From Phormidesmis sp. (lineage in GTDB: Bacteria; Cyanobacteriota; Cyanobacteriia; Leptolyngbyales; Leptolyngbyaceae): a stretch of 64,000 bases of DNA. Positions 37,805 to 52,378 of the stretch are shown here, one piece after another. Every line of letters begins with the position of its first letter. The first letter of the stretch is position 1. The stretch covers positions 2,336,001-2,400,000 of the forward strand of contig CBDFJR010000002.1 of NCBI GenBank assembly GCA_965248535.1, in the 5' to 3' direction. Made by a program: the position numbers and the translations under genes. Below the pieces are notes generated by a model. It had not been told where the DNA came from and searched no databases. It worked only from the letters and a program-made list of their open reading frames with translations.

Positions 37805-38350
37805 ATGTATCAGAAGTTTCGATATCTTCGTATTCATACTTTGGCATTCACAGCATTGTTTTTAATTTGTGCTTGTAATCCCGCGATCGCTGAAAGCAAA
37901 AGCCAGTGGACTTATTTATCACAAGCTAACCTGCCTAGCTTGCAGAAACAGTTACAGCAAAAATACACTAACAATGCTATTCCCATAGACGTGGGAAGAA
38001 TGCGAGTTTTGGCGATCGAACAGAACAATAAATCTCTCTACTTGATTGATACTCGTGTTTCTCTGGAGCCAAATCGAAGGCAATTGAACCCAACGTGTGG
38101 AGCAGCGGGATGCTCGATCATGGGCTATCTCCAAACCGGAAAGAGCTACCAAGAGGTTCTATCCATTTACCTCGATCCTGTTCCACCTCCAGGAAAATCA
38201 CTCATTGAGCCAACAGCAACCCTTCAAAACGGGCTTCCCTGCTTGAACTTCAATCAGCGCAAAATTAAAACCAGGCAAACCGAAGTTGTGCAGTGGTGTT
38301 ACGACGGACAACGCTACCAATTCGTAAATTCAACTCTCCAGCAGCAATGA
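37805..38350 (+). CDS. Hypothetical exported protein / lipoprotein
   Basis: Signal peptide with Cys; CGAAGC motif. Confidence 0.7.
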   Translation: MYQKFRYLRIHTLAFTALFLICACNPAIAESKSQWTYLSQANLPSLQKQLQQKYTNNAIPIDVGRMRVLAIEQNNKSLYLIDTRVSLEPNRRQLNPTCGAAGCSIMGYLQTGKSYQEVLSIYLDPVPPPGKSLIEPTATLQNGLPCLNFNQRKIKTRQTEVVQWCYDGQRYQFVNSTLQQQ

Positions 38351-40218
38351 GCAAACCTCCCCAAACTGTTCAATCTGGTTCCCATCCACTTCAAGATTTG
38401 AGCAACAGCACGACCGGGCTACTCAAATCTGAAGTGGGGTTGATGCTGCTGGTGTGTGCGGCGTTTCTGGTTTTCATGTCGATATTTGATGGTCAAAATA
38501 AAGGCAAGCTGGCACAAGGGCGATTTGGTGGACGTTGGGAGAAATGGTCAGCCGTGCGCCTAGCGAATCGACAAATTCGAGAGCAGGCGCATAATCAAGT
38601 AACGCTCTGGGCTGGAACGCCGAGAGAACTACGCATCGAAGCACCCAGGTTAAGACGATTTTGGGCAGAAACTAGGACGCTACTTTTAGACTCGCCACCC
38701 ACCCTGCATCTTGCTCATGCTCAACAAGGCATCATCGTTTGTGGTGCGCCAAACGCTGGTAAAACTTACAGCGTTATTGATCCGTGTATTCGCGCTGCCG
38801 TTCATCAAGGTATTCCCTGTGTCATTTACGATTACAAGGACGATCAGCTTAAAGCTCATGCAGCTTACGCCGCTGCTCAAGGCTATGAGGTAGCTGTATT
38901 TGCTCCAGGCTATGCCTACAGCAGCGTGATCAACCCACTGGATTTTCTCAGGGACGATGGCGATTCATTGATGGCGCGGCAGTTAGCGATTACGATTAAC
39001 CGCAACGCGCAACGCTTCTCTGGTGGAAAAGAAGACCCATTTTTTGCAGAAGCAGGCGAAAAACTTGTGGAAGGGTGCTTTCTGTTAGCAAAAAGTACAC
39101 CGTATCCCGATATGGTGATGGCATATTCGATTCTTGGGTTGTCAAAGTTAGAAGCACGACTGCAATTTGCCAAAGAGCAAGGGCGATTAGATGAGTTTAT
39201 CGAGGCGAGTTTCCAGCAGTTGTTGCAGTCGGCGGAATCTGAAAAAACGGTGGCTGGAATTCTAGCCACGGCTGAACGCGCGATCGGGTCTTTTGTCCGT
39301 CGTGATTTGCTTCCTAGCTTTCTGGGCAAATCCAGCATCTCGCTCGATATGCAGGGCAAGCAAATGCTGTTTCTACAAGTGGATTTACAGAAGCAGGATG
39401 TCGTCGCACCTCTGATCGCCGCAGTGTTGCATCTTGTGATCATGCACAATTTCTCAGGCATTCGGAAAAAACCGTTATTAGTTTCCCTTGATGAAGTTCG
39501 GACCGTTTATCTTCCCGATCTGCCCAAGTGGGTGAATGCGTTTCGCTCCTTTGGGTTTGTTCCACTGATTGGCTATCAAAACTTTGCCCAAATTCAGGAG
39601 ATTTATGGGCGTGATGCCTCAAAAGCGTTGTTTGCGGGGTGTGGAACAAAGGTGTTTTTCAATCCCAGAGATGAAGAAACGGCGCGAATGGTTTCTCACT
39701 ATCTGGGTGAGGAAGAAGTCTTGTTAAAAACACGATCGCGCAGCTACGGACGCAACGGTAGTTCGAGTCAATCTGAACAGTACCACAAACGCCCACTGCT
39801 GACGGTTGAACAACTTCTCAAGTTTGATCAGGGTGAATGTGTCGTGGTCAATCCTGGCTACAAAGGCTCTGGAGAAGCTTCCGTTCCACTGCGGACTAAA
39901 ATCAAGCTTCCAAAACAGGACGATGTGACTCAGCGAAGAAGTGAGGAACTCTGGAAGCTCGTACAACAAAGATTAGAGAAACGAACATCTAGTCATAGTC
40001 AAGATCATCAAGCACTGCGTGAAGCGCTACAGATTCGTCGAGCAATGGCAGAACGGCTATTTCCATTGCCGTTTAAGGAAACAGAGGATGAGTTTGATAC
40101 GGATACTTCGCCAGAACCTAGTTTCGACTCAAGAACAGATCCGCCAAACGTTAACGTTCCCGCACCTATCAACATTTCTACTCCTGTGATCACAGATGAT
40201 CTCAAGGAGTTTGTCTAA
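38347..40218 (+). CDS. Type IV coupling protein (VirD4/TraD-like)
   Basis: GAPNAGKT, YDYK, INPLD, SLDE, QNFAQIQEIYG. Confidence 0.9.
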   Translation: MSKPPQTVQSGSHPLQDLSNSTTGLLKSEVGLMLLVCAAFLVFMSIFDGQNKGKLAQGRFGGRWEKWSAVRLANRQIREQAHNQVTLWAGTPRELRIEAPRLRRFWAETRTLLLDSPPTLHLAHAQQGIIVCGAPNAGKTYSVIDPCIRAAVHQGIPCVIYDYKDDQLKAHAAYAAAQGYEVAVFAPGYAYSSVINPLDFLRDDGDSLMARQLAITINRNAQRFSGGKEDPFFAEAGEKLVEGCFLLAKSTPYPDMVMAYSILGLSKLEARLQFAKEQGRLDEFIEASFQQLLQSAESEKTVAGILATAERAIGSFVRRDLLPSFLGKSSISLDMQGKQMLFLQVDLQKQDVVAPLIAAVLHLVIMHNFSGIRKKPLLVSLDEVRTVYLPDLPKWVNAFRSFGFVPLIGYQNFAQIQEIYGRDASKALFAGCGTKVFFNPRDEETARMVSHYLGEEEVLLKTRSRSYGRNGSSSQSEQYHKRPLLTVEQLLKFDQGECVVVNPGYKGSGEASVPLRTKIKLPKQDDVTQRRSEELWKLVQQRLEKRTSSHSQDHQALREALQIRRAMAERLFPLPFKETEDEFDTDTSPEPSFDSRTDPPNVNVPAPINISTPVITDDLKEFV

Positions 40219-40243
40219 CTGTTGTATTTAGAGTCATAAATCT

Positions 40244-40657
40244 ATGTCACAAATTTTGCTTACGCCTCAACAAACCGAGTTGTTATTGAGAACTTGGGAA
40301 TTGTCCGAGTCTGCGATCGCCGTCCTCATTCACGAACCCGAACTCGTAGTGCATTTAGAAGAGATGCGATCGCGCCCTCCATTTCCACCAGGCTACGTGC
40401 CCGATGTCATTGAGGAATTATTCGATGACCTTCCGTATCGCCGTTGGGAATTGGGTCGTTCGCGACCAATCTATGAGCGTCAATGTTCCCCAGATTATGA
40501 GCCACCGTTCGTAGAGTACAGCTTTGACAATGAGACGGCATTGTTTCATGTGCAGGGAGAAATCATCGTGAATCGTGTCGCGGCGATCACTGCGTGGAGC
40601 GAAGCTAGCGTGGATTATGCAAACCGTTTAGATTGGCTAACGCCACAGGAGATCTAA
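40244..40657 (+). CDS. Hypothetical protein
   Basis: Clean ORF in the operon. Confidence 0.65.
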   Translation: MSQILLTPQQTELLLRTWELSESAIAVLIHEPELVVHLEEMRSRPPFPPGYVPDVIEELFDDLPYRRWELGRSRPIYERQCSPDYEPPFVEYSFDNETALFHVQGEIIVNRVAAITAWSEASVDYANRLDWLTPQEI

Positions 40658-40658
40658 A

Positions 40659-42335
40659 ATGATTCATTCAACTGTGAGTCCGAGTGATGCAGATGCTGCT
40701 CAACGTCAAGTCGATCAACTGTTCAGCATTCTGCAACAAATGCTCCAGGACACGATGCAATGGCTTGCCGCTCGAAGTCAGCAACCACTTAAGCAAGAGG
40801 GCGTATTGCGGATTTGGATGGGAAATGGAAAAGACAATCGCATCCTACGCCAAGTTTACGGTCCGATGGCGAATGGCAAAAATCGTAATGACCTCACGCC
40901 TGAACGATTACGATCGCTGCTCAATGCCCTTCAAGAACCCGTGACTGAAGGGGCTGACCTGGCTCGATATGCTAAACGGAACCCTGCGATCGAGATCAAA
41001 ATCGACGATGTAACCCTATTTCGTCAGGAACGGGATGGCGTTGTTACGGTCAATCAGATCCAGCAACAGATTCAGAATGCGCCGACTCAATTACAACCCT
41101 CACCCCCACAAGTAGAGCCGTCTGAAGTCTCAGATCAACCGTTGCCGTCCTCCGAACAAGTGCAGCAAATCGCTCATGTTGCTCGACAGCTCATGAATCC
41201 CTTGGGCGAATCAGAGTCTCCATTGCTGACGAAGGCTGGATTCGGCGACTTCACCTTGGAGTATGACGTAGAAACCGATGTGTCGACGATTTCTAAAGGA
41301 CAGCAAGCGATCGTGCGGGATCACGCCGGACAACTTGAGAACTTAGGGGTGATGGTGGCAGATTCAGAAGTCTTCCGATCGCTGGGTGAACGAATGCTGA
41401 GAACGTCCGCTATTCAGCCATCAGAGCGTAAACAACAAGAAGATATTCAAGATCGATCAGGTCGGCAAATACTAGAAGTAGTTCCAAGATCACAAAACAC
41501 ATCATCTTCTGAGATCGCTAGAGTAGCAGACCGACAAATTGCACAACTTCCAAATCAACAACTTCGGCAATTCCTCCAGCGAATGGTTCAAGGAACGGCA
41601 ACCTGGCTCAATCAGGCGTTGTATGATTGGCAGCTTAAGACGATCGCGCATACGGCACTGCAAGCCTTTCAGCGAGGCTACGATCGCACCGCCGAGGAAT
41701 CCTATCGAGTTGGAGAATTTACCGTCAGTCGGCAACCAGAGAATCAGTTTGAAATCAGCGATCGGGCGGGTGCCGTGATGCAATTTCAAACGGCATCCGG
41801 CAGAGTTAAGCCGATATCCATTGGCAATTCGCTTCGAGAAGTTTCAGGCGATCGCACCACCCAACCTTTCATCCACAACGCGATCGTTCAGCTTTCTTCC
41901 AATGTGCCGCAAGGACTACCTGAAGCGGATTTCGCCTTCCGGGTGAGTGAAGCAGAACAAACGATTCGAGATTTTTTAGCATACACGAAGACTTCGGTGT
42001 GGGACTACGATCGAGGCAAATTTCGACTCGAAATGGTGAATAACCAAGTGCTAATCACCTCAAAACAGGATGGACGCGGACAAATTCATGGAGCCGCAAA
42101 AGTCATGCAGAAAAACAACCGAGAGAAATTGGTTCCGCAACCGACTCGACTCACCTGGAAAGACCTGGAACATATCAATCACATTCGAGACAGATTGAGA
42201 GTCAGGATTGAAGCTGACCAAGCCCAAAGCCCGACAAAGCACCCTGTCCCCATTCAACCCACGTCCCAGAAACCCAAACCGCGTCAAGTTTCACAACCAT
42301 CCCGATGGCAGCCCAAACGAGTTGAGCTAGAGTAA
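40659..42335 (+). CDS. Hypothetical element-borne protein (558 aa)
   Basis: Long ORF ending in a basic tail ...PKRVELE. Confidence 0.75.
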   Translation: MIHSTVSPSDADAAQRQVDQLFSILQQMLQDTMQWLAARSQQPLKQEGVLRIWMGNGKDNRILRQVYGPMANGKNRNDLTPERLRSLLNALQEPVTEGADLARYAKRNPAIEIKIDDVTLFRQERDGVVTVNQIQQQIQNAPTQLQPSPPQVEPSEVSDQPLPSSEQVQQIAHVARQLMNPLGESESPLLTKAGFGDFTLEYDVETDVSTISKGQQAIVRDHAGQLENLGVMVADSEVFRSLGERMLRTSAIQPSERKQQEDIQDRSGRQILEVVPRSQNTSSSEIARVADRQIAQLPNQQLRQFLQRMVQGTATWLNQALYDWQLKTIAHTALQAFQRGYDRTAEESYRVGEFTVSRQPENQFEISDRAGAVMQFQTASGRVKPISIGNSLREVSGDRTTQPFIHNAIVQLSSNVPQGLPEADFAFRVSEAEQTIRDFLAYTKTSVWDYDRGKFRLEMVNNQVLITSKQDGRGQIHGAAKVMQKNNREKLVPQPTRLTWKDLEHINHIRDRLRVRIEADQAQSPTKHPVPIQPTSQKPKPRQVSQPSRWQPKRVELE

Positions 42336-42364
42336 CACTGAAGCAGTGAACGGAGGGATTTCCG

Positions 42365-42829
42365 ATGGCACGCTGGGAGTTTGAGCAATGGCACGCGGCA
42401 CAGGCTGCAAGAGAGATGGCGAGAAATCCCTTTCCGCTATTGATTGTCGGGATTTTGGCTACAATCTTTTCGGCTGCACCAATGGGGAACCGGGAACAAA
42501 CGCCGACTCCAGAGGAATATGTGAATCGTGCTGAATCCTGTCAGGTGGGTCTAACGTGCGATGGGGCACTGAATGATGTCCAGCAAGCGATCGAGCTTGA
42601 TCCAAAATTGGCACGAGCTTACGTGATTCGAGCCAGTTGGACATTAAAGCGACACGGTTTAGTTCAGTCTGCTCTGCAAGATTATCGAAAAGCCCGATCG
42701 CTCTATCAGGAACAACAGCAGGATTTTGAAGCGGGTGAAATCAGCCGTCGGGCAATCTCGCAACTTGAGCGAGGAGAAGCCCTCGCCTGCTTACCCACGA
42801 ATCCGATAAAACCCTTTGATTGTCTGTAG
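42365..42829 (+). CDS. TPR-containing membrane-anchored protein
   Basis: ALNDVQQAIELDPKLARAYVIRA; GGAGG RBS. Confidence 0.75.
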   Translation: MARWEFEQWHAAQAAREMARNPFPLLIVGILATIFSAAPMGNREQTPTPEEYVNRAESCQVGLTCDGALNDVQQAIELDPKLARAYVIRASWTLKRHGLVQSALQDYRKARSLYQEQQQDFEAGEISRRAISQLERGEALACLPTNPIKPFDCL

Positions 42830-42879
42830 AAATCGCTGGTTTGGATCATTTCTATTGGCAGAGCGAGATCGCACCGACT

Positions 42880-43095
42880 TCATCTCGATCGCTTGTTGTT
42901 AGTGAGTGTGTTAATGAGAGTAGCGATCGCACGAATTAAACCTGCCGTAGCGTTGATGGGCTTTTCGGTAGTGCCGAGAAATAGAGTCAGGACGAGCACC
43001 CAGGAGAGCGGATTGGTTGGGTCAATCGGAATCTGGGGCAAAGTCGTGGGGAGTTGAGGCTCGATCGATTGAATGGGTTGGTGGGAGTTTGACAT
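42880..43095 (-). CDS. Small membrane protein (71 aa), divergent from the CHAT-TPR gene
   Basis: ATG at 43095; PLSWVLVLTLFLG hydrophobic helix then an amphipathic helix. Confidence 0.55.
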   Translation of the reverse strand: MSNSHQPIQSIEPQLPTTLPQIPIDPTNPLSWVLVLTLFLGTTEKPINATAGLIRAIATLINTLTNNKRSR

Positions 43096-43230
43096 GATTG
43101 AGAACCTTTTGAATTTCGACACTTCAAGGCTATGAGGACTGAGCGCGACAAAAAATACCCAACTGATCGAAGGTTTGTGGATTATGGTAGAAACTACGTA
43201 GAAGATTGATACTTGTGAGACAGTGTGCTT

Positions 43231-44850
43231 ATGGAATGGGTGGAATTTCTGGAGGAGGTGGCAACAGAACACGAACTCTCCACTGATCAGAAGCAAGCTT
43301 TCATTGCACGGTTTGACCTTAAGAATTCTGCCAAGACCGAGAAACAGATTGCGAACCAAACGAAAGACAGCGAGGGTAACGATCTCTTCGCGGGAGAGGC
43401 TGCGTTCAAGAAGCTGATGACCCAGGTGTATCGCAAGCTACAACCGCTTTGTCCAGAACTGGAAACCTCATCGCGAGGAAAACAGCCGAAGCTAAAAGCT
43501 TTCTTGCAGGCAAAGTTTAAGCAGCGTCAGTCGATTCCAGATCCGCCCATTCCTAGAAGTAGCTCAGAAGCGATTCCTGAATCCTCCACACTTGAGTTGC
43601 CCCCGCTCAGAAATCAACAGAATATACCAGGCAATGGGCAGGGAATCCAGATCAACGACGCACAAGCGCCAGTCATAGCTGGTGCTAATCCAGTGGTGAA
43701 CATACATCTACGTGAGGGTAGGGCTGACACTTATAAAAAGACAATTTTGATGTTAGCAGCTAGTCCTGAAAGCGCTACAAAGCCACGATGGAGAGAAGAA
43801 CTCAAAAAAATTAGGGGCGCGGTAGATAGAGCTAAAAGCGATGGAAGATTTGAAGTACAAGACAGGTCTTATATAGGCTCATCCGATCTGTCTGAGGAGC
43901 TAACAAAGCTCACACCTTTTGTTATTCACATTTCTGGATGTGTAGATGGAGTCGAGAGGCTATTTCTCAAAGATACTGGTCAAAATATTGACAATAGTAG
44001 CCGAAAGGAATTGATAGGTGATCTGTTCAAGGAGCACGTAGAGGCAAAGAAAATAGATTGTGTCATTCTGAGCGGCTGCTACCTAGAAGAACAGACTAGA
44101 GAAATTGTTCAGCATATTAACTTCGTAATTGGAATTACTGCTGATCTCGAAGAAGTACACGCTGTCCAATTTCTAAATGAATTCTATTATCAGCTAGCTT
44201 CAGGTCGAGAAATAGAGGCTTCATATCGTCTCGGTTATAACCTTATTAAAAGAGAAGGTTGTTCTGAAGAACTTTCCTTACCCCGACTTTTTACTAAAAA
44301 TGATGAGGTAAGACGTAGAGATTTAGAAAAAGAGTTAGATATTTGCCTTAAGCAGATAGAGAAGGATCCGAGCAATGTACAACTCCGGAAGAAGAAAGCC
44401 AGTCTATTAACAGATTTAGGTCGTATAGATGAAGTAGACGATGCCTATGAAAAAGTATCTTCACTTGATCCTGAAAACCCTAGCATTCGAGTTCAACAAG
44501 GAGATGCGCTAGAGCAATTAGGAGATCATAAGAAAGCAAATGCTGCTTATGAAAAAGCCCTTGAGCTAGACGAGAAAGATTACAAAGTTTGGTGGAAAAA
44601 GGCTAGAGTACTTGTCAAAGCTGGAAAGAATATGGAGGCTGGAGAATGTTACAAAAACGCTCTCTCGCTTCTGCCGCCTTCGCCAGACAATTATGTAATC
44701 TGTAGAGAATATGGTAATGCGTTAGGCAGACTGGAGCAATTTTACGAAAGTATACTGCTATACCAAACATCGCTGTGCTTACAGCCTAACTACCGCATTG
44801 CTAATCATGACAAGAAGCAGGTATACAAAAAAATCTACGCCAAAAAATGA
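43231..44850 (+). CDS. HTH-like N-domain + CHAT (caspase-like) domain + TPR protein; candidate retron partner
   Basis: TILMLAASP, EELKKI, VIHISGC, VILSGCY, FVIG, FLNEFYYQLASG CHAT pattern; about 4-5 C-terminal TPRs. Confidence 0.8.
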   Translation: MEWVEFLEEVATEHELSTDQKQAFIARFDLKNSAKTEKQIANQTKDSEGNDLFAGEAAFKKLMTQVYRKLQPLCPELETSSRGKQPKLKAFLQAKFKQRQSIPDPPIPRSSSEAIPESSTLELPPLRNQQNIPGNGQGIQINDAQAPVIAGANPVVNIHLREGRADTYKKTILMLAASPESATKPRWREELKKIRGAVDRAKSDGRFEVQDRSYIGSSDLSEELTKLTPFVIHISGCVDGVERLFLKDTGQNIDNSSRKELIGDLFKEHVEAKKIDCVILSGCYLEEQTREIVQHINFVIGITADLEEVHAVQFLNEFYYQLASGREIEASYRLGYNLIKREGCSEELSLPRLFTKNDEVRRRDLEKELDICLKQIEKDPSNVQLRKKKASLLTDLGRIDEVDDAYEKVSSLDPENPSIRVQQGDALEQLGDHKKANAAYEKALELDEKDYKVWWKKARVLVKAGKNMEAGECYKNALSLLPPSPDNYVICREYGNALGRLEQFYESILLYQTSLCLQPNYRIANHDKKQVYKKIYAKK

Positions 44851-44880
44851 TAATGTTTACGTAGTGAGGTACTATCTACG

Positions 44881-45101
44881 GTAGAGCATCTGTAGAAACT
44901 ATTAATTTCCATTGACTAAGTGCGATGGTGTATTCCGAAGAAAACTATAGCCCCCACAGTTTAAAGTTCAAAGGGGTGCTACCCTTGTGTAGTGAGCTAC
45001 CACGGGTTAGGCAGAGAACGTAAATACGTTCTACAGATGTTCTGTTTCTTGTAAGAAAGAATCATTCAGTGGCTCTTCGCGAAAAGTTCCTGACTAGTTT
45101 T
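44881..45101 (+). ncRNA. Putative retron msr-msd RNA region
   Basis: Non-coding gap just upstream of the RT, with 15-bp inverted repeat 44883-44897/45029-45043, short IR 44941-44947/45095-45101 and several stem-loops; boundaries uncertain. Confidence 0.65.
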
Positions 45102-46221
45102 GAAAATGTACATTCGCGGGTCTGAAGTCAGCTCAACGCTATTTCTATGTCAGAGCTGTGATGAGCTGAGAAAACTTTTTTTCGATCTCAAAGAACCAAG
45201 AGACGTAGCTGACCTCCTAGAAGTTTCTTATGGTAAGTTGATTTATCATATCTCAAGACTCCCTGAAAACAGGAGGTATGTAGATTTTTCAATCCTCAAA
45301 AAGTCGGGAAAATCTCGAATAATATCAGCTCCTTGTACACCATTGAAAATTTTACAGAGAAAGCTGAGTCAAGTTCTTTATAGTGTCTATGAACCGAAAG
45401 TGACCGTACATGGTTTTGTGCCTGCTAGAAGCATTTTGACAAATGCAGAACAGCACGTACACAAAAGGTTTATACTAAACATTGATTTAAAAGATTTTTT
45501 TCATAGTATCCATTTTGGACGAGTCCGAGGGATATTTACGAAGCCACCTTACAATCTTTCCAGCGAAGTTTCCACGACCTTGGCTAAAATTTGTTGCTAT
45601 TTGGGAAGGCTACCGCAAGGCGCTCCAACATCGCCAATCGTTTCTAATATGATCTGTGCGCGCATGGATAGCGAACTGCGAAAGTTGGCGCAAGAATTCA
45701 AATGCACATGCTACACAAGATATGCTGACGATATAACCTTCTCTACAACTCTATCAAAATTTCCAGGCGAACTAGCATATACAGAAATAGAGGTTGATAC
45801 GGATGTATCAAAAATTGCTTTAGGAGCAAGACTGAGATTGATAATTCAAAATAATGGTTTTGAAGTTAATGAGAGTAAGGTTCGACTACAGTACAAGAAT
45901 CAACATCAGGAAGTCACAGGCTTAACTGTTAATAAATTTCCTAATGTGAAACGGAGTTTTGTACGCGAAATTAGCTCCATGCTTTATGCCTGGGACAAAT
46001 TTGGATTAGAATCGACAGAGCAAAGATACCACGCTAAGTATGCTCAGGATATCGATAAATCTGGTCATAAACCCCCTCCGTTTAAAGAGATTCCTTCATT
46101 TGAGGAGGTATTGCGAGGAAAGATTAATTTTCTCGGTATGGTTAGAGGCAAAGATAACGAAATTTATCGCACGTACTCAGAATGGTTTCGTGCGCTTTCA
46201 AAAAGAGAGTCGGCTAATTAG
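45100..46221 (+). CDS. Retron-type reverse transcriptase (Ec67-like RT, no fused effector)
   Basis: KKSG..R.I.AP, HGF, region X NAEQH, DLKDFF, LPQGAPTSP, YTRYADD, region Y VTG; start may be ATG 45106. Confidence 0.93.
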   Translation: MKMYIRGSEVSSTLFLCQSCDELRKLFFDLKEPRDVADLLEVSYGKLIYHISRLPENRRYVDFSILKKSGKSRIISAPCTPLKILQRKLSQVLYSVYEPKVTVHGFVPARSILTNAEQHVHKRFILNIDLKDFFHSIHFGRVRGIFTKPPYNLSSEVSTTLAKICCYLGRLPQGAPTSPIVSNMICARMDSELRKLAQEFKCTCYTRYADDITFSTTLSKFPGELAYTEIEVDTDVSKIALGARLRLIIQNNGFEVNESKVRLQYKNQHQEVTGLTVNKFPNVKRSFVREISSMLYAWDKFGLESTEQRYHAKYAQDIDKSGHKPPPFKEIPSFEEVLRGKINFLGMVRGKDNEIYRTYSEWFRALSKRESAN

Positions 46222-46259
46222 TAGTTGCAGCTTAACCTAGCATGACAGCGAGCTAGGCA

Positions 46260-46437
46260 ATTTTCTGCACATTAGACAAAAACTGCTAGCTACTACCTCT
46301 CCTAGATCGCTATCCTCAATACCATCTCTCACCGCAATCGCGCCACGCTGTATCCCACAATCGTACATCTCGGCGGAACCGCAGCCGTCCGAGGCATGGT
46401 CGATGCCATGCGCGAAGTCTGCAACCAGTGGAAGTAA
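46260..46437 (+). pseudogene. 3' remnant of a helical-repeat protein gene (repeat copy 1: 46360-46437)
   Basis: ...NRATLYPTIVHLGGTAAVRGMVDAMREVCNQWK*, with an upstream in-frame stop. Confidence 0.6.
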
Positions 46438-46487
46438 TGATAGAACGTTCAAGCAGGCTAAAATACAAACACTTTTCGAGGTGAATC

Positions 46488-46766
46488 ATGATTGAAATCA
46501 CGATCGAGGAAATCTCAGAAGATCTGTCCGCCTATCTACAGCGAGTTCAGGCAGGAGAAAGCTTTGTCGTGTTGCAAGCAGGAACCCCCGTTGCCCAAGT
46601 TGTGCCACCGCAGCCGAAAGTGAAATCGGATCGGGGAAAAGATTTTCTAGAATCCCTAGCCAAATTTCAAGAGGAGATGCTTGCTGAAGGGATTGATCTC
46701 GACCCCGACGAGATCTTTAAAGATGTCAGAGATCGCACTCCTGCCCCCGAACGTCCGAGGTGGTAG
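46488..46766 (+). CDS. Phd/YefM-family antitoxin
   Basis: LSAYLQRVQAGESFVV...PVAQVVP; GAGG RBS. Confidence 0.88.
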   Translation: MIEITIEEISEDLSAYLQRVQAGESFVVLQAGTPVAQVVPPQPKVKSDRGKDFLESLAKFQEEMLAEGIDLDPDEIFKDVRDRTPAPERPRW

Positions 46767-47182
46767 ACTTGCGCTTTCTTCTTGACACGAACACGATCTC
46801 AGAACTATTCAGGCTTCAGCCCAACTCATCTATTGCAACAAAATACGCGCAAAATATCGATGATATTGCGATCGCATCTGTGACCTGGCATGAGCTACTT
46901 TACGGCTTTCATCGTTTACCAACTTCTCGAAGAAAAGAAGAATTGGGCTTCTTCCTGCGTCAGATTATCCGCCCCAACGTTTCGATCCTAGATTATGGTG
47001 AGGACGAAGCAGAGTGGTTCGCAAGTGAGCGGGCAAGGCTCACCGGAACGGGACGAATGCCTTCGTATGCAGACGGGCAAATTGCAGCAATCGCTGCTGT
47101 CCACAATCTTATTCTCGTCACTAGAAATGTTTCTGATTATTCTGATTTTTCAGGGTTAGCGATCGAGAACTGGTTTGAATGA
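46760..47182 (+). CDS. VapC-family PIN toxin
   Basis: LLDTNTISE, WHE, DGQIAAIA, LVTRNVSD. Confidence 0.92.
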   Translation: MVDLRFLLDTNTISELFRLQPNSSIATKYAQNIDDIAIASVTWHELLYGFHRLPTSRRKEELGFFLRQIIRPNVSILDYGEDEAEWFASERARLTGTGRMPSYADGQIAAIAAVHNLILVTRNVSDYSDFSGLAIENWFE

Positions 47183-47339
47183 TTTTGCAGCGATCGCTGG
47201 ATGACATGAAAGATCTTTTGCGATCGCAGTAGTACCGATCAGGTTGACTTGGCTTGTCTAGTCACTCTACTTCGCAATTACTGAAAGCGACAGCAACTCC
47301 TTGGTCTCAAACCCGAATAAAAACAGCGGCTCATTCAAC

Positions 47340-47471
47340 TCCTCAACATTGCCTATTTTTGACTCACTCATCGCAGCCACCGCAATTCACTGGGGACTAC
47401 GCCTAGTCACTCGCAACGAAGAAGACTTCGACAGAACGGGACTCACGATTATGAGTCCGTTTAACCTTTAA
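47340..47471 (+). pseudogene. VapC C-terminal remnant
   Basis: PIFDSLIAATAIHWGLRLVTRNEEDFDRTGLTIMSPF. Confidence 0.75.
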
Positions 47472-47475
47472 CTTG

Positions 47476-47553
47476 ATCGTACATCTCGGTGGAGAAGCCG
47501 CCATCAGAAGCATGGTCGATGCCATGCGCGACATCTGCCAACAATGGAAGTAG
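47476..47553 (+). repeat. 78-bp repeat copy 2 (homologous to 46360-46437)
   Basis: IVHLGGEAAIRSMVDAMRDICQQWK*; 22-nt identical core gcatggtcgatgccatgcgcga. Confidence 0.9.
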
Positions 47554-47677
47554 AAGATTTTGAATTTGAGGATGATTGAAAGAGATCCACCCTAACCGTT
47601 CCAATTAGTTCTGCCGAATTCTGAAGGATCGTGCCCTTCGCTATAATTCAAGCATGGCAATTGTGGGATGAAGATCA

Positions 47678-48058
47678 ATGCAAGCCTCCACCGAGCAACT
47701 CTTAAAAGCAATTGAGCAACTGCCTCAGCAGGAGTTGGATGCGTTCGTTGAGCAAGTTCTAAAACTTCGCGCTCAACGACAAGTTCCCCACCTACCGCAA
47801 CTAGAGTCCGAGCTATTGCTCAAAATTAACTATAGTCTTCCGACTTCATTGCGAACCAGATTTGGCGAACTCGTCGCCAAGCGGCAAGAACTCACCATCA
47901 CCGACGCAGAACTCGCAGAACTCATTGAGATCACCGACGCAAGTGAGCAACTCAATGCTGAAAGAATTGCAGCGATCTCTGAGTTAGCAAAATTAAGACA
48001 TCAAACTCTAGACCAGGTAATGCAAGATTTAGGAATTCACCCTCCTGCCTGTGTCTAA
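47678..48058 (+). CDS. Antitoxin-like helical protein coupled to an HNH gene
   Basis: ESELLLKIN...ELAKLR...VMQDLGI; overlaps the HNH start. Confidence 0.7.
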   Translation: MQASTEQLLKAIEQLPQQELDAFVEQVLKLRAQRQVPHLPQLESELLLKINYSLPTSLRTRFGELVAKRQELTITDAELAELIEITDASEQLNAERIAAISELAKLRHQTLDQVMQDLGIHPPACV

Positions 48059-48500
48059 CGATCGTGTCACAGCAGAACAGCGTCGGATCGTCATTGCCAG
48101 AGCCAAGCAATGCTGCGAATATTGCTACAGTTAGGTAAAATTTGCAACAGACTCATTTTCCGTAGAACACATCCTTCCGCGTAACAAAGGTGGAGCGACT
48201 GTCCTGGATAATCTGGCGTTATCTTGTCAAGGCTGCAATAACTTCAAGCACGTCAAAACGGAAGCACTTGGTCCTCCCAGGGAACAGGTTGTGCCTCTCT
48301 TTCACCCTCAACAACAAATCTGGCGAGAGCATTTTGTCTGGAATGACGACTATACCTTGGTGATTGGAATCACACCCATAGGACGGATCACGGTAAACGA
48401 ACTGAGGCTAAATCGGGCTGGACTAATGAATCTTCGCCGCGTTCTTTTTGCAACGAGTGAGCATCCGCCTCTTGATTCGCTTCCTCTGTCTGACTTATAA
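48051..48500 (+). pseudogene. HNH endonuclease with a premature stop
   Basis: CEYC...EHILP...NLALSCQGCN; in-frame TAG at 48132-48134. Confidence 0.85.
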
Positions 48501-48539
48501 CGTCGATCGTGATGGCAACTTTTGAGACGCGGATCGAAC

Positions 48540-50285
48540 CTACCGCAGTTTCTGCCGGGTTTTCTGGCGCTGTCGTTGTTGAGCTTGATGTCTTCGAGAA
48601 GTGCGCTCCGGTTGATACGCTGCCTGAACTGTCAGTTTGATATAGGCATTCGTCTTATCATCTCCTTGAACCTCTCGCATCCACTGAACATACGGACTTT
48701 GCTGGAGCAGTTGATTGACGGCTTGCCGAAGTTCTCGTGAGGGTAACTTTTCTCGTTTTCCGTCTGAAATTGCCAGTCGCACCACTTTCTCATCCTGCTT
48801 AACGGGATTAGATTCGTTGATGCGACCGCAGTAATCCTGCCAATTTAGAATTATTTGTGGGGGTTGCTTTGCGTTGGCGGGAGAGGCTGACTGCTTTGGG
48901 GTGGCAGATATCGCAGCATCAGGACGACCGTGCAAGCCGTCGAGATTGCGTACATTGTCAGGAATCCGCAAATTCTGACCCATCCGGGCTTGATCGGAAT
49001 CGGCTGGCGGAGTTGATTCACTGATTCGGTTAGCTGCTTGACTTGTTTCTGCTGCTGTTGGCTCTGAATTGCTGACTGCTTGATGGCTTGCCGACTTTGA
49101 GTTTTGATTTCGGCAAGGTCTTGGTTGAGTTTGGTGTTTGTGGTTTGGAGAGACGCGATCGCTGCTTTGAGATCCTTAAGGATTTGCTGAGATATCGGCA
49201 GACTCTCCTGAAGTTCCTCCAAAATCAGATTCATCTGCGGTGTGATCGTCTCGTTCTGTTGCTGAAAGCTGAATAGATGCTGATATAGATTCTCTAGTTG
49301 AGTTTGAATCTGAGATTGATGGGTCTCCAATTGAGGTTGTAGCTGCCCCTCTGGAGTCAGATTCCTCACTGATTCCACTAAGGTTTGAATGGGTTTCAGC
49401 TTCGGTTCGAGTTGCTGAAGGAGTTCCAGATTGTCGATCAAGGTCTGAAGCGATTGAGTCGTTGGGACTGAGTTCTGTTTTTCTAATTTCGATTTGGCAG
49501 CTTGTCTCATTGCGTCGCTCATAATTTTCTCCTAGTTGGAATTGGACACGGTTCCAGGTATAGCGTTTGCCGAGTTTGTAGCCTGGGAAGGCGATGCCAT
49601 TAAGCTTGTAAGAAATGCCTGCGTTGCCTGTATTGACTTGGCGTAATCGGCTCTCGACTCCATAGTTCGCAAGGCGTTGTCTGAAGTCGTCTAAATCGGT
49701 TGAGGTTGAGAGTACATCGTCGATCGCGACTTGTAGCCGCACCCGAACACTCGGTTCTCCCGTCTGATGAAATTGGCGAACTTCATTCACCGTTGGCGCT
49801 GTTACGTCAGTTTCCCAACTCGACGGCACGGACTGAAGTTGGTAGTCCTGCTCTAGTTTGCGAAGCACGAGTTGCGCTTGGCGATAGTCGAGCCAGCCGT
49901 TGACCATCGTGCCGTCGAGCCGCGATCGGGCAATCACCAAATGCACATGATCGTGTTGTGTATCGGTGTGTCTGACCATCACGAATTGGTTGTTGTCAAA
50001 GCCCATTTCGATCAGGTAGTCTTTGGCGATCGCGTTCCACGTTTCCGCTTCTAGATTTCGCCCAACCTCAACGCTCAGACTGGTGTGGCAGACCACAACT
50101 TGGGCGAGATTGCGGGGCGATCGCCTTTGTTGACGTTGTACCGAGAGATTGAATTCAGCGACTAATTCTGAAAGAGCGATGCCTTCCATGTTGCCGCCGA
50201 TACGCTCGGCTCCGGTCTTGCTCAAGACATAGCGGAGACACCCGTAGAAATCCTGCCCTTTGGTGATTTTGGCAAGCATAGTCAA
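48540..50285 (-). CDS. MOBP-type relaxase; single premature TAA at 49176-49178
   Basis: N-terminal Tyr region, HTSLS, HTDTQHDHVHLV; ORFs 49176-50285 and 48540-48983 share a frame with only that stop between them. Confidence 0.85.
48851..49522 (-). CDS. Coiled-coil + TM mobilization accessory protein nested in the relaxase gene
   Basis: AGGAG RBS, 223-aa Q/L-rich heptads, C-terminal TM helix. Confidence 0.8.
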   Translation of the reverse strand: MSDAMRQAAKSKLEKQNSVPTTQSLQTLIDNLELLQQLEPKLKPIQTLVESVRNLTPEGQLQPQLETHQSQIQTQLENLYQHLFSFQQQNETITPQMNLILEELQESLPISQQILKDLKAAIASLQTTNTKLNQDLAEIKTQSRQAIKQSAIQSQQQQKQVKQLTESVNQLRQPIPIKPGWVRICGFLTMYAISTACTVVLMLRYLPPQSSQPLPPTQSNPHK

Positions 50286-50668
50286 GGATGGTTGGATGTT
50301 TTCAGCACGCTTTGATGATGCAGTCCTGATTCTGTGGAGCAGACTCCCGCGATTTCAGCACGAACTTGATGAAGCAGAGTCATCAAGTCATTGAGAAATT
50401 GAAGGGTTTCAGCATCCGTTTGCAGTTGGGTCAGGGTGTCCCCAACTTTTCCGAGTTGTTGGTACGTCTCGATCGCAACGTCCGTCACCACAGGCATTGA
50501 TGGATCGTGAAAGCAGGCGTAGCGGACGTATCGGCTGAGAGGTCATTCCAGCACTTCGTGAGCTAGGGCTTCAAGCTGAGAGCGCTCTTGGAGTGAGAGA
50601 CGAACTTCCACTCGACAGCGGGGCAGAGTGCCGGGGCGAGGCGAAATTTGATCAAAATTTCCGGACAC
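50282..50668 (-). pseudogene. MobC-like ribbon-helix-helix relaxosome protein, frameshifted
   Basis: RVEVRLSLQERSQLEALA...SRYVRYAC...YQQLGKVG across frames; overlaps the relaxase start. Confidence 0.7.
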
Positions 50669-50669
50669 G

Positions 50670-50830
50670 GCATTTGCTTGTTTGTGAAAAGCACGGTACT
50701 ATATCAGCATATCACCCGCCAACACGTTGTGGTGATGCCAAATCTAGAAATGATCTACGCTAAATATCAGCATCTACCCTTCAACCCTTGACCGCATCAT
50801 TGCTACGGCTCTATAAGAAGAGGCAAAACG
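50670..50830. promoter_or_regulatory. Candidate oriT / parC / divergent promoter region
   Basis: Between mobC and parM; direct repeat atatcagcat (50701, 50764) and hairpin 50711-50736. Confidence 0.45.
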
Positions 50831-50831
50831 A

Positions 50832-51921
50832 ATGATCGTGACTTCAATTGACTTGGGTAGCTCTTTAACGAAGAGCTTTTACTTAGACCACGGAATGCCT
50901 TGTCCATTAGTGATGGAACCCGAAATTGCTTCAGTGCAGCCTGAATTGCTCGATCGCTACCAGTCTGTGAACCAAGATGCCTATCCCGAAAAAGTGGCTT
51001 GGGTGCAGCTAGACGATGAAATTGCAGCCGTGGGACAACTTGCTCAAAATTTCGCAGGCGATATGGGATTGGTCGAGCGCAAAGAGCGACGCGCCATTCA
51101 CAAGATTCTGGCGGTTTTAGGATCAGTTCAAGAGCGACTTCAACTGAGTGAGCGCACTCCTGCAATCTTGTCCGTGATGTTGCCTGTGACGGAGTTTAGC
51201 GATCGCAGAAAACTCCAGTCCTCAATTCAGGAAGCTGCTGCGAATTTCACGTTTCGCGGAAAAGCCTTGTCGATCGAGTTCCAAAAGCTGCAAATCCTGC
51301 CTGAAGGGTTTGGCTTGTTCCTAACCTTACGGGCGGAACTGATCAAACAGCAGATTAATCCCAGGAATCGAAATATCTTGGTTCTGATGTTGGGACACCG
51401 AAACCTGAGCCTCTTGATTTTTCAGAATGGCGTTTTGCAGGACACCTCTCGCAGTGACGGTCCCGGATTCTTCAACGCGGTGAAAATTGCGGCATCGCTT
51501 CAAGGACTATCCGAAGGAACGCCACATCTTAACCGAAGCGATCGCAATGAATCACGCCAGCCTGCGAGTTGCAGGACAGCTAATGCCGATTAACCTTAAA
51601 GCGACCAATCTTGCCGCACGAGAAGGATACTGGAAACAGGTCAAAACCTATTTAGAAAACCATCTTCCCGGTGGTGAGTATGATGTGATCGTGGCAGGTG
51701 GAGCCGGGACAGTGATTGAGACTGAACTCAACACGCTGTTTCAGCAGATGGATTTACCAGGACGGCTGAGTTTTGGAGAAGGACTGAAGTATCAGCTTCA
51801 AGCGCTTTTGCAAGACAATCCTGACCTCCGCTCCCAACCCTCTTTGATCGCTCGTATGGCGGATTCTTACGCGGTGTTTGGGTCAACTTGGGCAGCTTAC
51901 CAAACCACAAACGCGGCTTGA
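50832..51921 (+). CDS. ParM/StbA-family actin-like ATPase, split by one frameshift near 51530
   Basis: SIDLGSSLTK, LPEGFG, MLGHRN, VAGGAG motifs over two frames. Confidence 0.85.
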
Positions 51922-51937
51922 TTTGAGGAGATAAACC

Positions 51938-52378
51938 ATGCCAAGACGACCTGCGGACAAAAGCCAACTCAGTCCCAATTCAAAAGAGCGCGTCAGGTTT
52001 ACCTTTGAACCCGATCGCAACTCTCCCAATGGGATTTTGCTGTCTTGGATCTTGCACAAAGCTTACGATGGCAAAGAGAAAATGATGGCAGCAGGTCGCT
52101 CATTCTGGTTGCCCTTCGCGTATCAAGCAAGTGGCAAATACTCCAAAGCTGAACTTCGAGCCGTGGCAAACGAGTCCATCTGGCGACTGGAAGAACAGAT
52201 TCGATTCTTGCGTGAGAACTTTGAAATCGAAGCGCCGAGTCGAACTCCAACAGCACCCACGTCTCAGTCTCAGTCTGCTGACCCTGAACCTGAGAACGAC
52301 CCGAATCAATTTTTTGGGGATTTGGATCTTACGATCGAGGACGATATGTTGGGTAGCCTGGATGATGCAATGGGGTAG
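51938..52378 (+). CDS. Putative ParR-like adaptor
   Basis: Small gene right after parM, GAGGAG RBS, basic N-terminus and acidic tail. Confidence 0.55.
   Translation: MPRRPADKSQLSPNSKERVRFTFEPDRNSPNGILLSWILHKAYDGKEKMMAAGRSFWLPFAYQASGKYSKAELRAVANESIWRLEEQIRFLRENFEIEAPSRTPTAPTSQSQSADPEPENDPNQFFGDLDLTIEDDMLGSLDDAMG

Follow-up and report, generated by a model that had tools for sequence, protein, structure and literature searches.

A retron, one of the bacterial devices against viruses, that may prime reverse transcription from an adenosine was identified in a 64,000-nucleotide stretch of Phormidesmis sp. DNA (the window, to which all coordinates refer). Judged from its sequence, the locus is a three-part retron made up of a partner gene, a non-coding RNA (ncRNA) with a single conserved fold and an unfused clade-8 reverse transcriptase (RT). 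As an explanation of the whole we consider it more probable than not that such a retron, with one fold and predicted priming at A44904, forms an RT-msDNA complex that restrains the partner protein. The priming guanosine is usually regarded as the single invariant base of the RNAs of retrons. The ncRNA lies in a gap of 251 nt between an open reading frame of 541 aa (43225–44850) and the RT of 373 aa (45100–46221), and the parts of the locus are the following.

43225–44850, forward strand: partner gene, 539–541 aa with an ATG at 43231, from the open reading frame call
44870–44875, forward strand: candidate −10 element, 7 nt before the left arm
44883–44897, forward strand: left arm of the a1/a2 stem (stem A), by covariation
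44900–44903, forward strand: left strand of the inner 4-bp extension, 97.5% of alignment cells paired and three of four pairs double-changed
44904, forward strand: predicted branch (priming) nucleotide A44904, the homologous position being G in most relatives
44909–44928, forward strand: conserved msr hairpin and probable RT recognition element, 99% of cells paired and three of six pairs double-changed
44929–44949, forward strand: conserved linker, from its conserved columns a probable region of RNA/DNA overlap and termination, also holding the left arm of pairing B (see below)
44950–45021, forward strand: predicted msd template, variable between relatives in the alignments, its DNA copy folding into two hairpins
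45022–45026, forward strand: A45022, opposite the predicted branch A, and the right strand of the inner stem (45023–45026)
45029–45043, forward strand: right arm of the a1/a2 stem, by covariation and shuffle test
45100–46221, forward strand: stand-alone retron RT, 373 aa from a TTG with an ATG at 45106, no fused effector

Comparison between relatives shows an ncRNA of about 44883–45043 that is closed by stem A and its 4-bp inner extension and contains a single msr hairpin, which is conserved, and an msd that varies. A preliminary description of the same DNA was right in calling the region a retron ncRNA, and the letters and coordinates that it gave for two long-range pairings, A and B, for a TAGC and for a set of hairpins were all found in place. 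Stem A consists of 15 pairs, one of them G-U (G44886-T45040), and is followed by an A and not by a G. B consists of 7 perfect pairs and is accompanied by TAGC at 44948–44951, while the named hairpins fold alone at −10.1, −9.8, −6.4, −6.8 and −0.8 kcal/mol, the last being barely stable. A and B had been taken for two competing architectures, but only A exceeds chance. When the 251-nt gap was shuffled 300 times by dinucleotides, no shuffle reached 15 pairs with one G-U or fewer, whereas 177 reached 7 perfect long-range pairs of the B kind. On a single molecule covering 44883–45101 the core pairs of A form with a probability of about 1.0 and those of B with a probability of 0.0, and forcing B on this molecule costs 8 kcal/mol. 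Covariation, proposed as a check of both folds, was present for A in the relatives and absent for B, whose pairs were 53.6% paired in 15 homologs as against 51.5% in shuffles, with the 3' side gapped, missing or unalignable in 7 of the 15 rows. The right arm of B is situated at the RT start, within a leader that is absent from a related locus (L004:1845–3050) where a deletion has removed the leader separating the ncRNA from the RT and the right arm of the a1/a2 stem overlaps the RT start. Since B is matched by 177 of 300 shuffles and does not covary, it is a chance pairing.

The preliminary model had B, with G44950 as the branch nucleotide, compete with A under a switch that promoter choice or read-through would set. 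An RNA starting after 44897 could indeed form B together with the hairpins at −42.5 kcal/mol, and part of B is kept in one relative (L001). Against this stand the shuffle-level pairing of B and its defective right arm in the homologs, as well as the candidate −10 element, which precedes arm A; the TAGC around G44950 is not conserved among homologs and no sign of a conformational switch was seen, so that we regard this model as very improbable indeed. The hairpins that had been described as msr-like sit in the predicted template (msd), and those described as msd-like either overlap the right arm of A or belong to the unconserved leader that L004 has lost. What survives of the proposed multi-hairpin msDNA is its hairpins as such, the DNA complement of 44936–45021 being predicted to fold at −10.4 kcal/mol with two of them, although the fold B on which the proposal was built is unsupported. 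A TTAGC-like motif at columns 44940–44945 was also considered as the branch site and rejected, its G being A, C or T in many homologs.

Stem A carried double changes in 12 of 14 pairs in a set of 15 ncRNAs (the window, 11 family and 3 sister loci) and in all 13 tested pairs in a set of 50 distinct ncRNAs. In the latter set, the three helices (stem A, inner stem and hairpin) were together 93% paired with 229 double-change cells. None of 500 shuffles reached this covariation, a test that is inflated by related sequences and that used a structure drawn from the same sequences; helices slid out of register paired at 37–53%. Given these slid controls and the fact that 19 of the 23 pairs covary, there is little doubt, on comparative grounds, that stem A, inner stem and hairpin are real. 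The inner stem has a probability of only about 0.16 in the window by RNAfold and was not predicted by RNAalifold. A GCCC/GGGC helix closing the msd was seen by eye only. The probable role of the linker was assigned in view of the AT-rich termination reported in PMC10849725. In 14 of the 15 family loci, and in 30 of 51 loci overall, a TAnnnT motif has its end 3–10 nt ahead of the left arm (counts without a shuffle control), and this position suggests that the ncRNA begins with arm A. A promoter scan returned 8 sites, as against 6.3 in shuffles, none of which lies before the ncRNA, and the candidate −10 element is absent from its list. No Rfam family matched in the window at gathering scores, and the covariance model built for the ncRNA found a single copy in its own genome.

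After an internal loop, the extended stem A ends in a purine facing a purine, 44904 opposite 45022. Among 46 cyanobacterial homologs this position pair is G·G in 36, A·A in 8 (window included) and U·G in 2, and neither A·G nor G·A occurs; in other words, 44 of 46 homologs carry the same purine at both positions. Scored by corrected mutual information, the pair comes 2nd among 8807 column pairs when the 15 family loci are used and 9th among 8030 when all 46 ncRNAs are. At the inner end of a1/a2, where a priming guanosine is sought, the window has A at the homologous site, and the A·A members contain no other G between stem and hairpin. An Ec67-family locus of E. coli (L160), whose protein matches Eco2 at E 4e-188 and which stands in for the Eco2 ncRNA as a homolog and not as Eco2 itself, has a 13-bp stem, then G703 opposite a G, then ATTT and a hairpin. 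Eco2 is reported to prime at G15 (PMC12916289), and a stem-end rule and a CAGA context of priming have been described (PMC6868368). Because A44904 falls on the same site as G703 of this locus, which matches Eco2 G15 as well as the stem-end rule and the CAGA context, we infer that it occupies the priming position and that the apparently missing G is best read as a branch adenosine. That the RT does prime from A44904 is, from this comparison, rated slightly better than an even call.

To account for A·A among the family members, three changes are needed on the best RT tree and equally on each of the 200 bootstrap trees. The AU test did not reject one common origin of A·A there (p=0.187), so the perfect purine match may rest on few events. 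RT columns that differ between A·A and G·G members are 135, 314 and 333, and at 135 the Ec67 RT has Glu, as do A-type Pseudomonas RTs. In published work the region of the priming G of Eco1 is sensitive to mutation (PMC11754653), and functional retrons are stated to prime "most frequently" at G, a base that has also been employed as an annotation filter for retron RNAs (PMC10849725).

Two further readings leave fold A in place. According to one, the purine·purine pair is a structural self-pair and priming occurs elsewhere, at A44905, at a G of the stem or hairpin, or at a processed 3' end. Symmetric A·A and G·G pairs can stand in for one another, A44905 is invariant in 46 of 46 homologs and thereby offers an alternative primer, two relatives have U·G, and Retron-Sen1 has been reported to be without an apparent priming G. 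The site nevertheless coincides with the G of the Ec67-family retron, G44895 is T in two relatives (L007 and L095) and the conserved Gs of the hairpin are paired; we judge this reading unlikely while giving it real weight. The other holds that the loci with A·A are in decay or fail to produce msDNA, the RT and ncRNA acting without a DNA product or being inactive. The partner in the window is without a catalytic effector, and decay does occur in the family, since the RT of one relative with G·G (L125) is interrupted by a stop. Open RT frames and partner genes are, on the other hand, kept in all 8 A·A members, both purines changed together, and the stems still covary among these members; we hold this reading to be improbable. 

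Group II introns branch from A. In its general form, our proposal would be that natural retrons can prime from the 2'-OH of adenosine, that the RT needs a matched purine·purine pair at the a1/a2 end and not G, and that this property has more than one origin within clade 8, namely in the cyanobacterial family and, judged by eye, among type XI retrons of Pseudomonas and some TIR retrons. The family would further constitute an undescribed modular type with a pseudo-caspase/TPR adaptor and exchangeable effectors. Taken together, we hold this proposal as evenly balanced between right and wrong. Five Pseudomonas type XI loci were seen with no G between stem and hairpin, being A·A in one alignment and A·G in another, so that the register is uncertain. 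Seven loci (L019, L042, L063, L087, L088, L155 and L156) are A-type by eye, and the stretch from the a1/a2 stem to the msr hairpin likewise has no G in L044, L050, L051, L054 and L057; these clade-8 loci include type XI, TIR-fused and other retrons. In L021 and L024 a C stands opposite A by eye.

The RT contains intact motifs in its translation (NAEQH at 115–119, YADD at 208–211 and VTG at 272–274), and its closest solved relative is the Ec67 RT (E 5.7e-59). The best PADLOC matches were RT-Protease_XI, RT-TIR_XII and RT-Toprim_I-C, all over the RT part only; these models belong to clade 8 as described by Mestre (PMC7736814). By these matches the enzyme is an unfused clade-8 RT of type XI-like character. 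The C-terminal trypsin-like protease fused to type XI RTs is absent, the protein stopping after the thumb and matching positions 5–324 of the 510-position profile, and a fused TIR or TOPRIM (types XII and I-C) is likewise absent, the matches falling below curated cut-offs and covering only the RT part.

Genome, metagenome and whole-genome searches gave 154 loci, 149 of them with an RT and 116 remaining after removal of duplicates. A pattern search for the RT contributed 5 metagenome loci and found it on 0 viral contigs. The window RT and 14 others form a clade with support 99/96 in a careful tree of 24 rows, and the order partner, ncRNA, RT is found in 15 of 15 of these loci. The RT of a further locus (L006, 1–327) was placed among the clade in a quick tree of 57 rows and had no ncRNA match in the roughly 320 nt upstream. 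Upstream of 51 of the 116 RTs, the ncRNA was detected by a sequence profile (E<0.01); of the other 65 loci, 64 were scanned with the covariance model, which added 21 ncRNAs. The ncRNAs of Pseudomonas type XI retrons match the same model. In the pair L125/L129, the RT of L125 has an internal stop.

The predicted structure of the partner (pLDDT 87) is composed of an N-terminal helical HTH-like domain, a disordered linker, a CHAT-fold domain and TPR repeats. Foldseek matched the caspase-like fold to SAVED-CHAT 8tl0 (E 1.2e-6), and an HTH_VMAP-M9 match to the N-terminal domain scored 0.87 and serves as a lead only. Of the 16 loci in the clade of the RT, 15 have the partner gene upstream of the RT, a comparison which shows that this gene travels with the RT. 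All five full-length partner matches in genome searches have an RT downstream, an undercount in that 4, 11 or 41 candidates were scored per genome. A total of 59 partner homologs were collected among proteins of 203–648 residues, of which 54 were aligned and 5 left out as short or near-duplicate; most of the 59 come without genomic context, and their RT link is assumed. The catalytic His of CHAT is found in 4 of 54 homologs and the Cys in 53 of 54. The partner in the window has its His replaced and lacks the His-Cys dyad of an active CHAT protease, and five other CHAT-like genes from three of the same genomes keep the His. The N-terminus is variable between homologs, being trypsin in 23 of 54 and also TIR, EAD4 or CHAT, and HTH-like in the window. 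The window's N-terminal domain has no evident catalytic site, and its output may be DNA binding or the recruitment of another effector. A Trypco1 gene is located upstream in L003 and L005. The partner of L090 (844 aa) has at its N-terminus an additional CHAT domain, in which both catalytic motifs are present, ahead of the pseudo-CHAT/TPR part, and the homologs P0052 and P0055 likewise start with a CHAT domain. Schlafen (AlbA_2)-TPR partners without CHAT are found upstream in sister retrons L092, L108:201–1268, L110 and L153, called by Pfam in L108 and by eye in the other three, and two of the Schlafen-TPR sister retrons have U opposite G at the branch site.

In the mechanism that we propose, the RNA would probably start at the left arm from its own promoter. 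The RT would prime from the 2'-OH of A44904, opposite A45022, and copy from T45021 back to about 44935–44949, giving a predicted msDNA of 70–85 nt with two hairpins. The RT-msDNA complex would then bind the partner through its constant pseudo-CHAT/TPR part and keep the exchangeable N-terminal effector inactive; this variable domain would be set free once a phage attacks the msDNA. This restraint of the partner is proposed by analogy to the caging of the Eco2 nuclease by msDNA, and on that analogy we lean towards it by a narrow measure. The Eco2 msDNA pairs between subunits instead of forming its predicted hairpin.

Retron-Eco2 (Ec67), type I-C1 of clade 8, is among the closest known systems, with the closest solved RT and an Ec67-family ncRNA that has the same stem-end site. 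It differs in its fused TOPRIM nuclease and branch G, where the present locus has an unfused RT, a separate partner gene and an A·A site. Types XI (RT-trypsin) and XII (RT-TIR) (PMC7736814) resemble the family in that trypsin and TIR recur as partner N-termini in the relatives; in those types they are fused C-terminally to the RT, whereas here the effector domain is part of a distinct pseudo-CHAT/TPR protein encoded upstream. Toro described in 2026 (PMC13712802) type XI-like lineages that lack the protease and have WYL or DnaB_C proteins as partners. The main text of that paper treats WYL/DnaB_C accessories and is without TPR, CHAT, cyanobacteria or branching, and one cyanobacterial type XI row of its supplement has a TPR_16 neighbour on which no comment is made. 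No WYL or DnaB_C gene (TXI_C2like / TXI_noncan_h) was found within two genes of the window RT, the Pfam matches of the neighbours being TPR, Phd and PIN only. The EAD/VMAP conflict systems of multicellular bacteria (Kaur et al. 2020, PMC7159879) likewise employ, in cyanobacteria, swappable EAD4, trypsin with Trypco1, TIR and caspase-fold modules. These systems, as presented there, centre on MoxR-vWA or GTPases, and RTs are tied there to diversity-generating retroelements and not to retrons. The clade-8 rows of Khan hold no cyanobacterium. In the literature searched, which also takes in PMC8632793 and PMC12956279, neither a CHAT/TPR retron nor adenosine priming was found; subscription papers, such as the older Inouye mutagenesis, and supplements may bear on this. 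The locus is, within that literature, a clade-8 retron variant not found before, whose modular partner is encoded separately and whose branch nucleotide is predicted to be an adenosine.

A double swap of G·G to A·A would be a direct test of how retron RTs pick the priming 2'-OH. If adenosine priming is true, annotation based on G misses A-type retrons that could be recovered, and A-type RT-ncRNA pairs may serve as orthogonal pairs in editing tools. The relocation of clade-8 effectors (trypsin, TIR) to a separate TPR adaptor bears on effector exchange among retrons.

A larger sister lineage (L008–L014, L096, L099–L107, L130–L148 and L157, the last being plasmid pAQ5 of PCC 7002) consists of unfused cyanobacterial clade-8 RTs with the same ncRNA, all G·G, and mostly with a downstream ORF of about 260–330 aa. 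The downstream ORFs tested had no PADLOC or Pfam match, and those of L009 and pAQ5 are dissimilar to each other. The lineage possibly comprises further undescribed types.

The retron is situated inside an apparent integrated conjugative element (38293–52378), flanked by a gene for a VirD4/TraG-like coupling protein (38293–40218) and a relaxase gene (49176–50285, minus strand). A Phd-PIN toxin-antitoxin pair (46488–47182) and an actin-like gene (50832–51593) are nearby, and the GC content falls to 39% at 44001–46000. Upstream of the partner gene is a small TPR-like ORF (42365–42829) that is also present in the genome of L001 (L089, 154 aa). Among the sequencing runs listed for the stretch there was none of RNA, and two runs match it without differences and may be its source.
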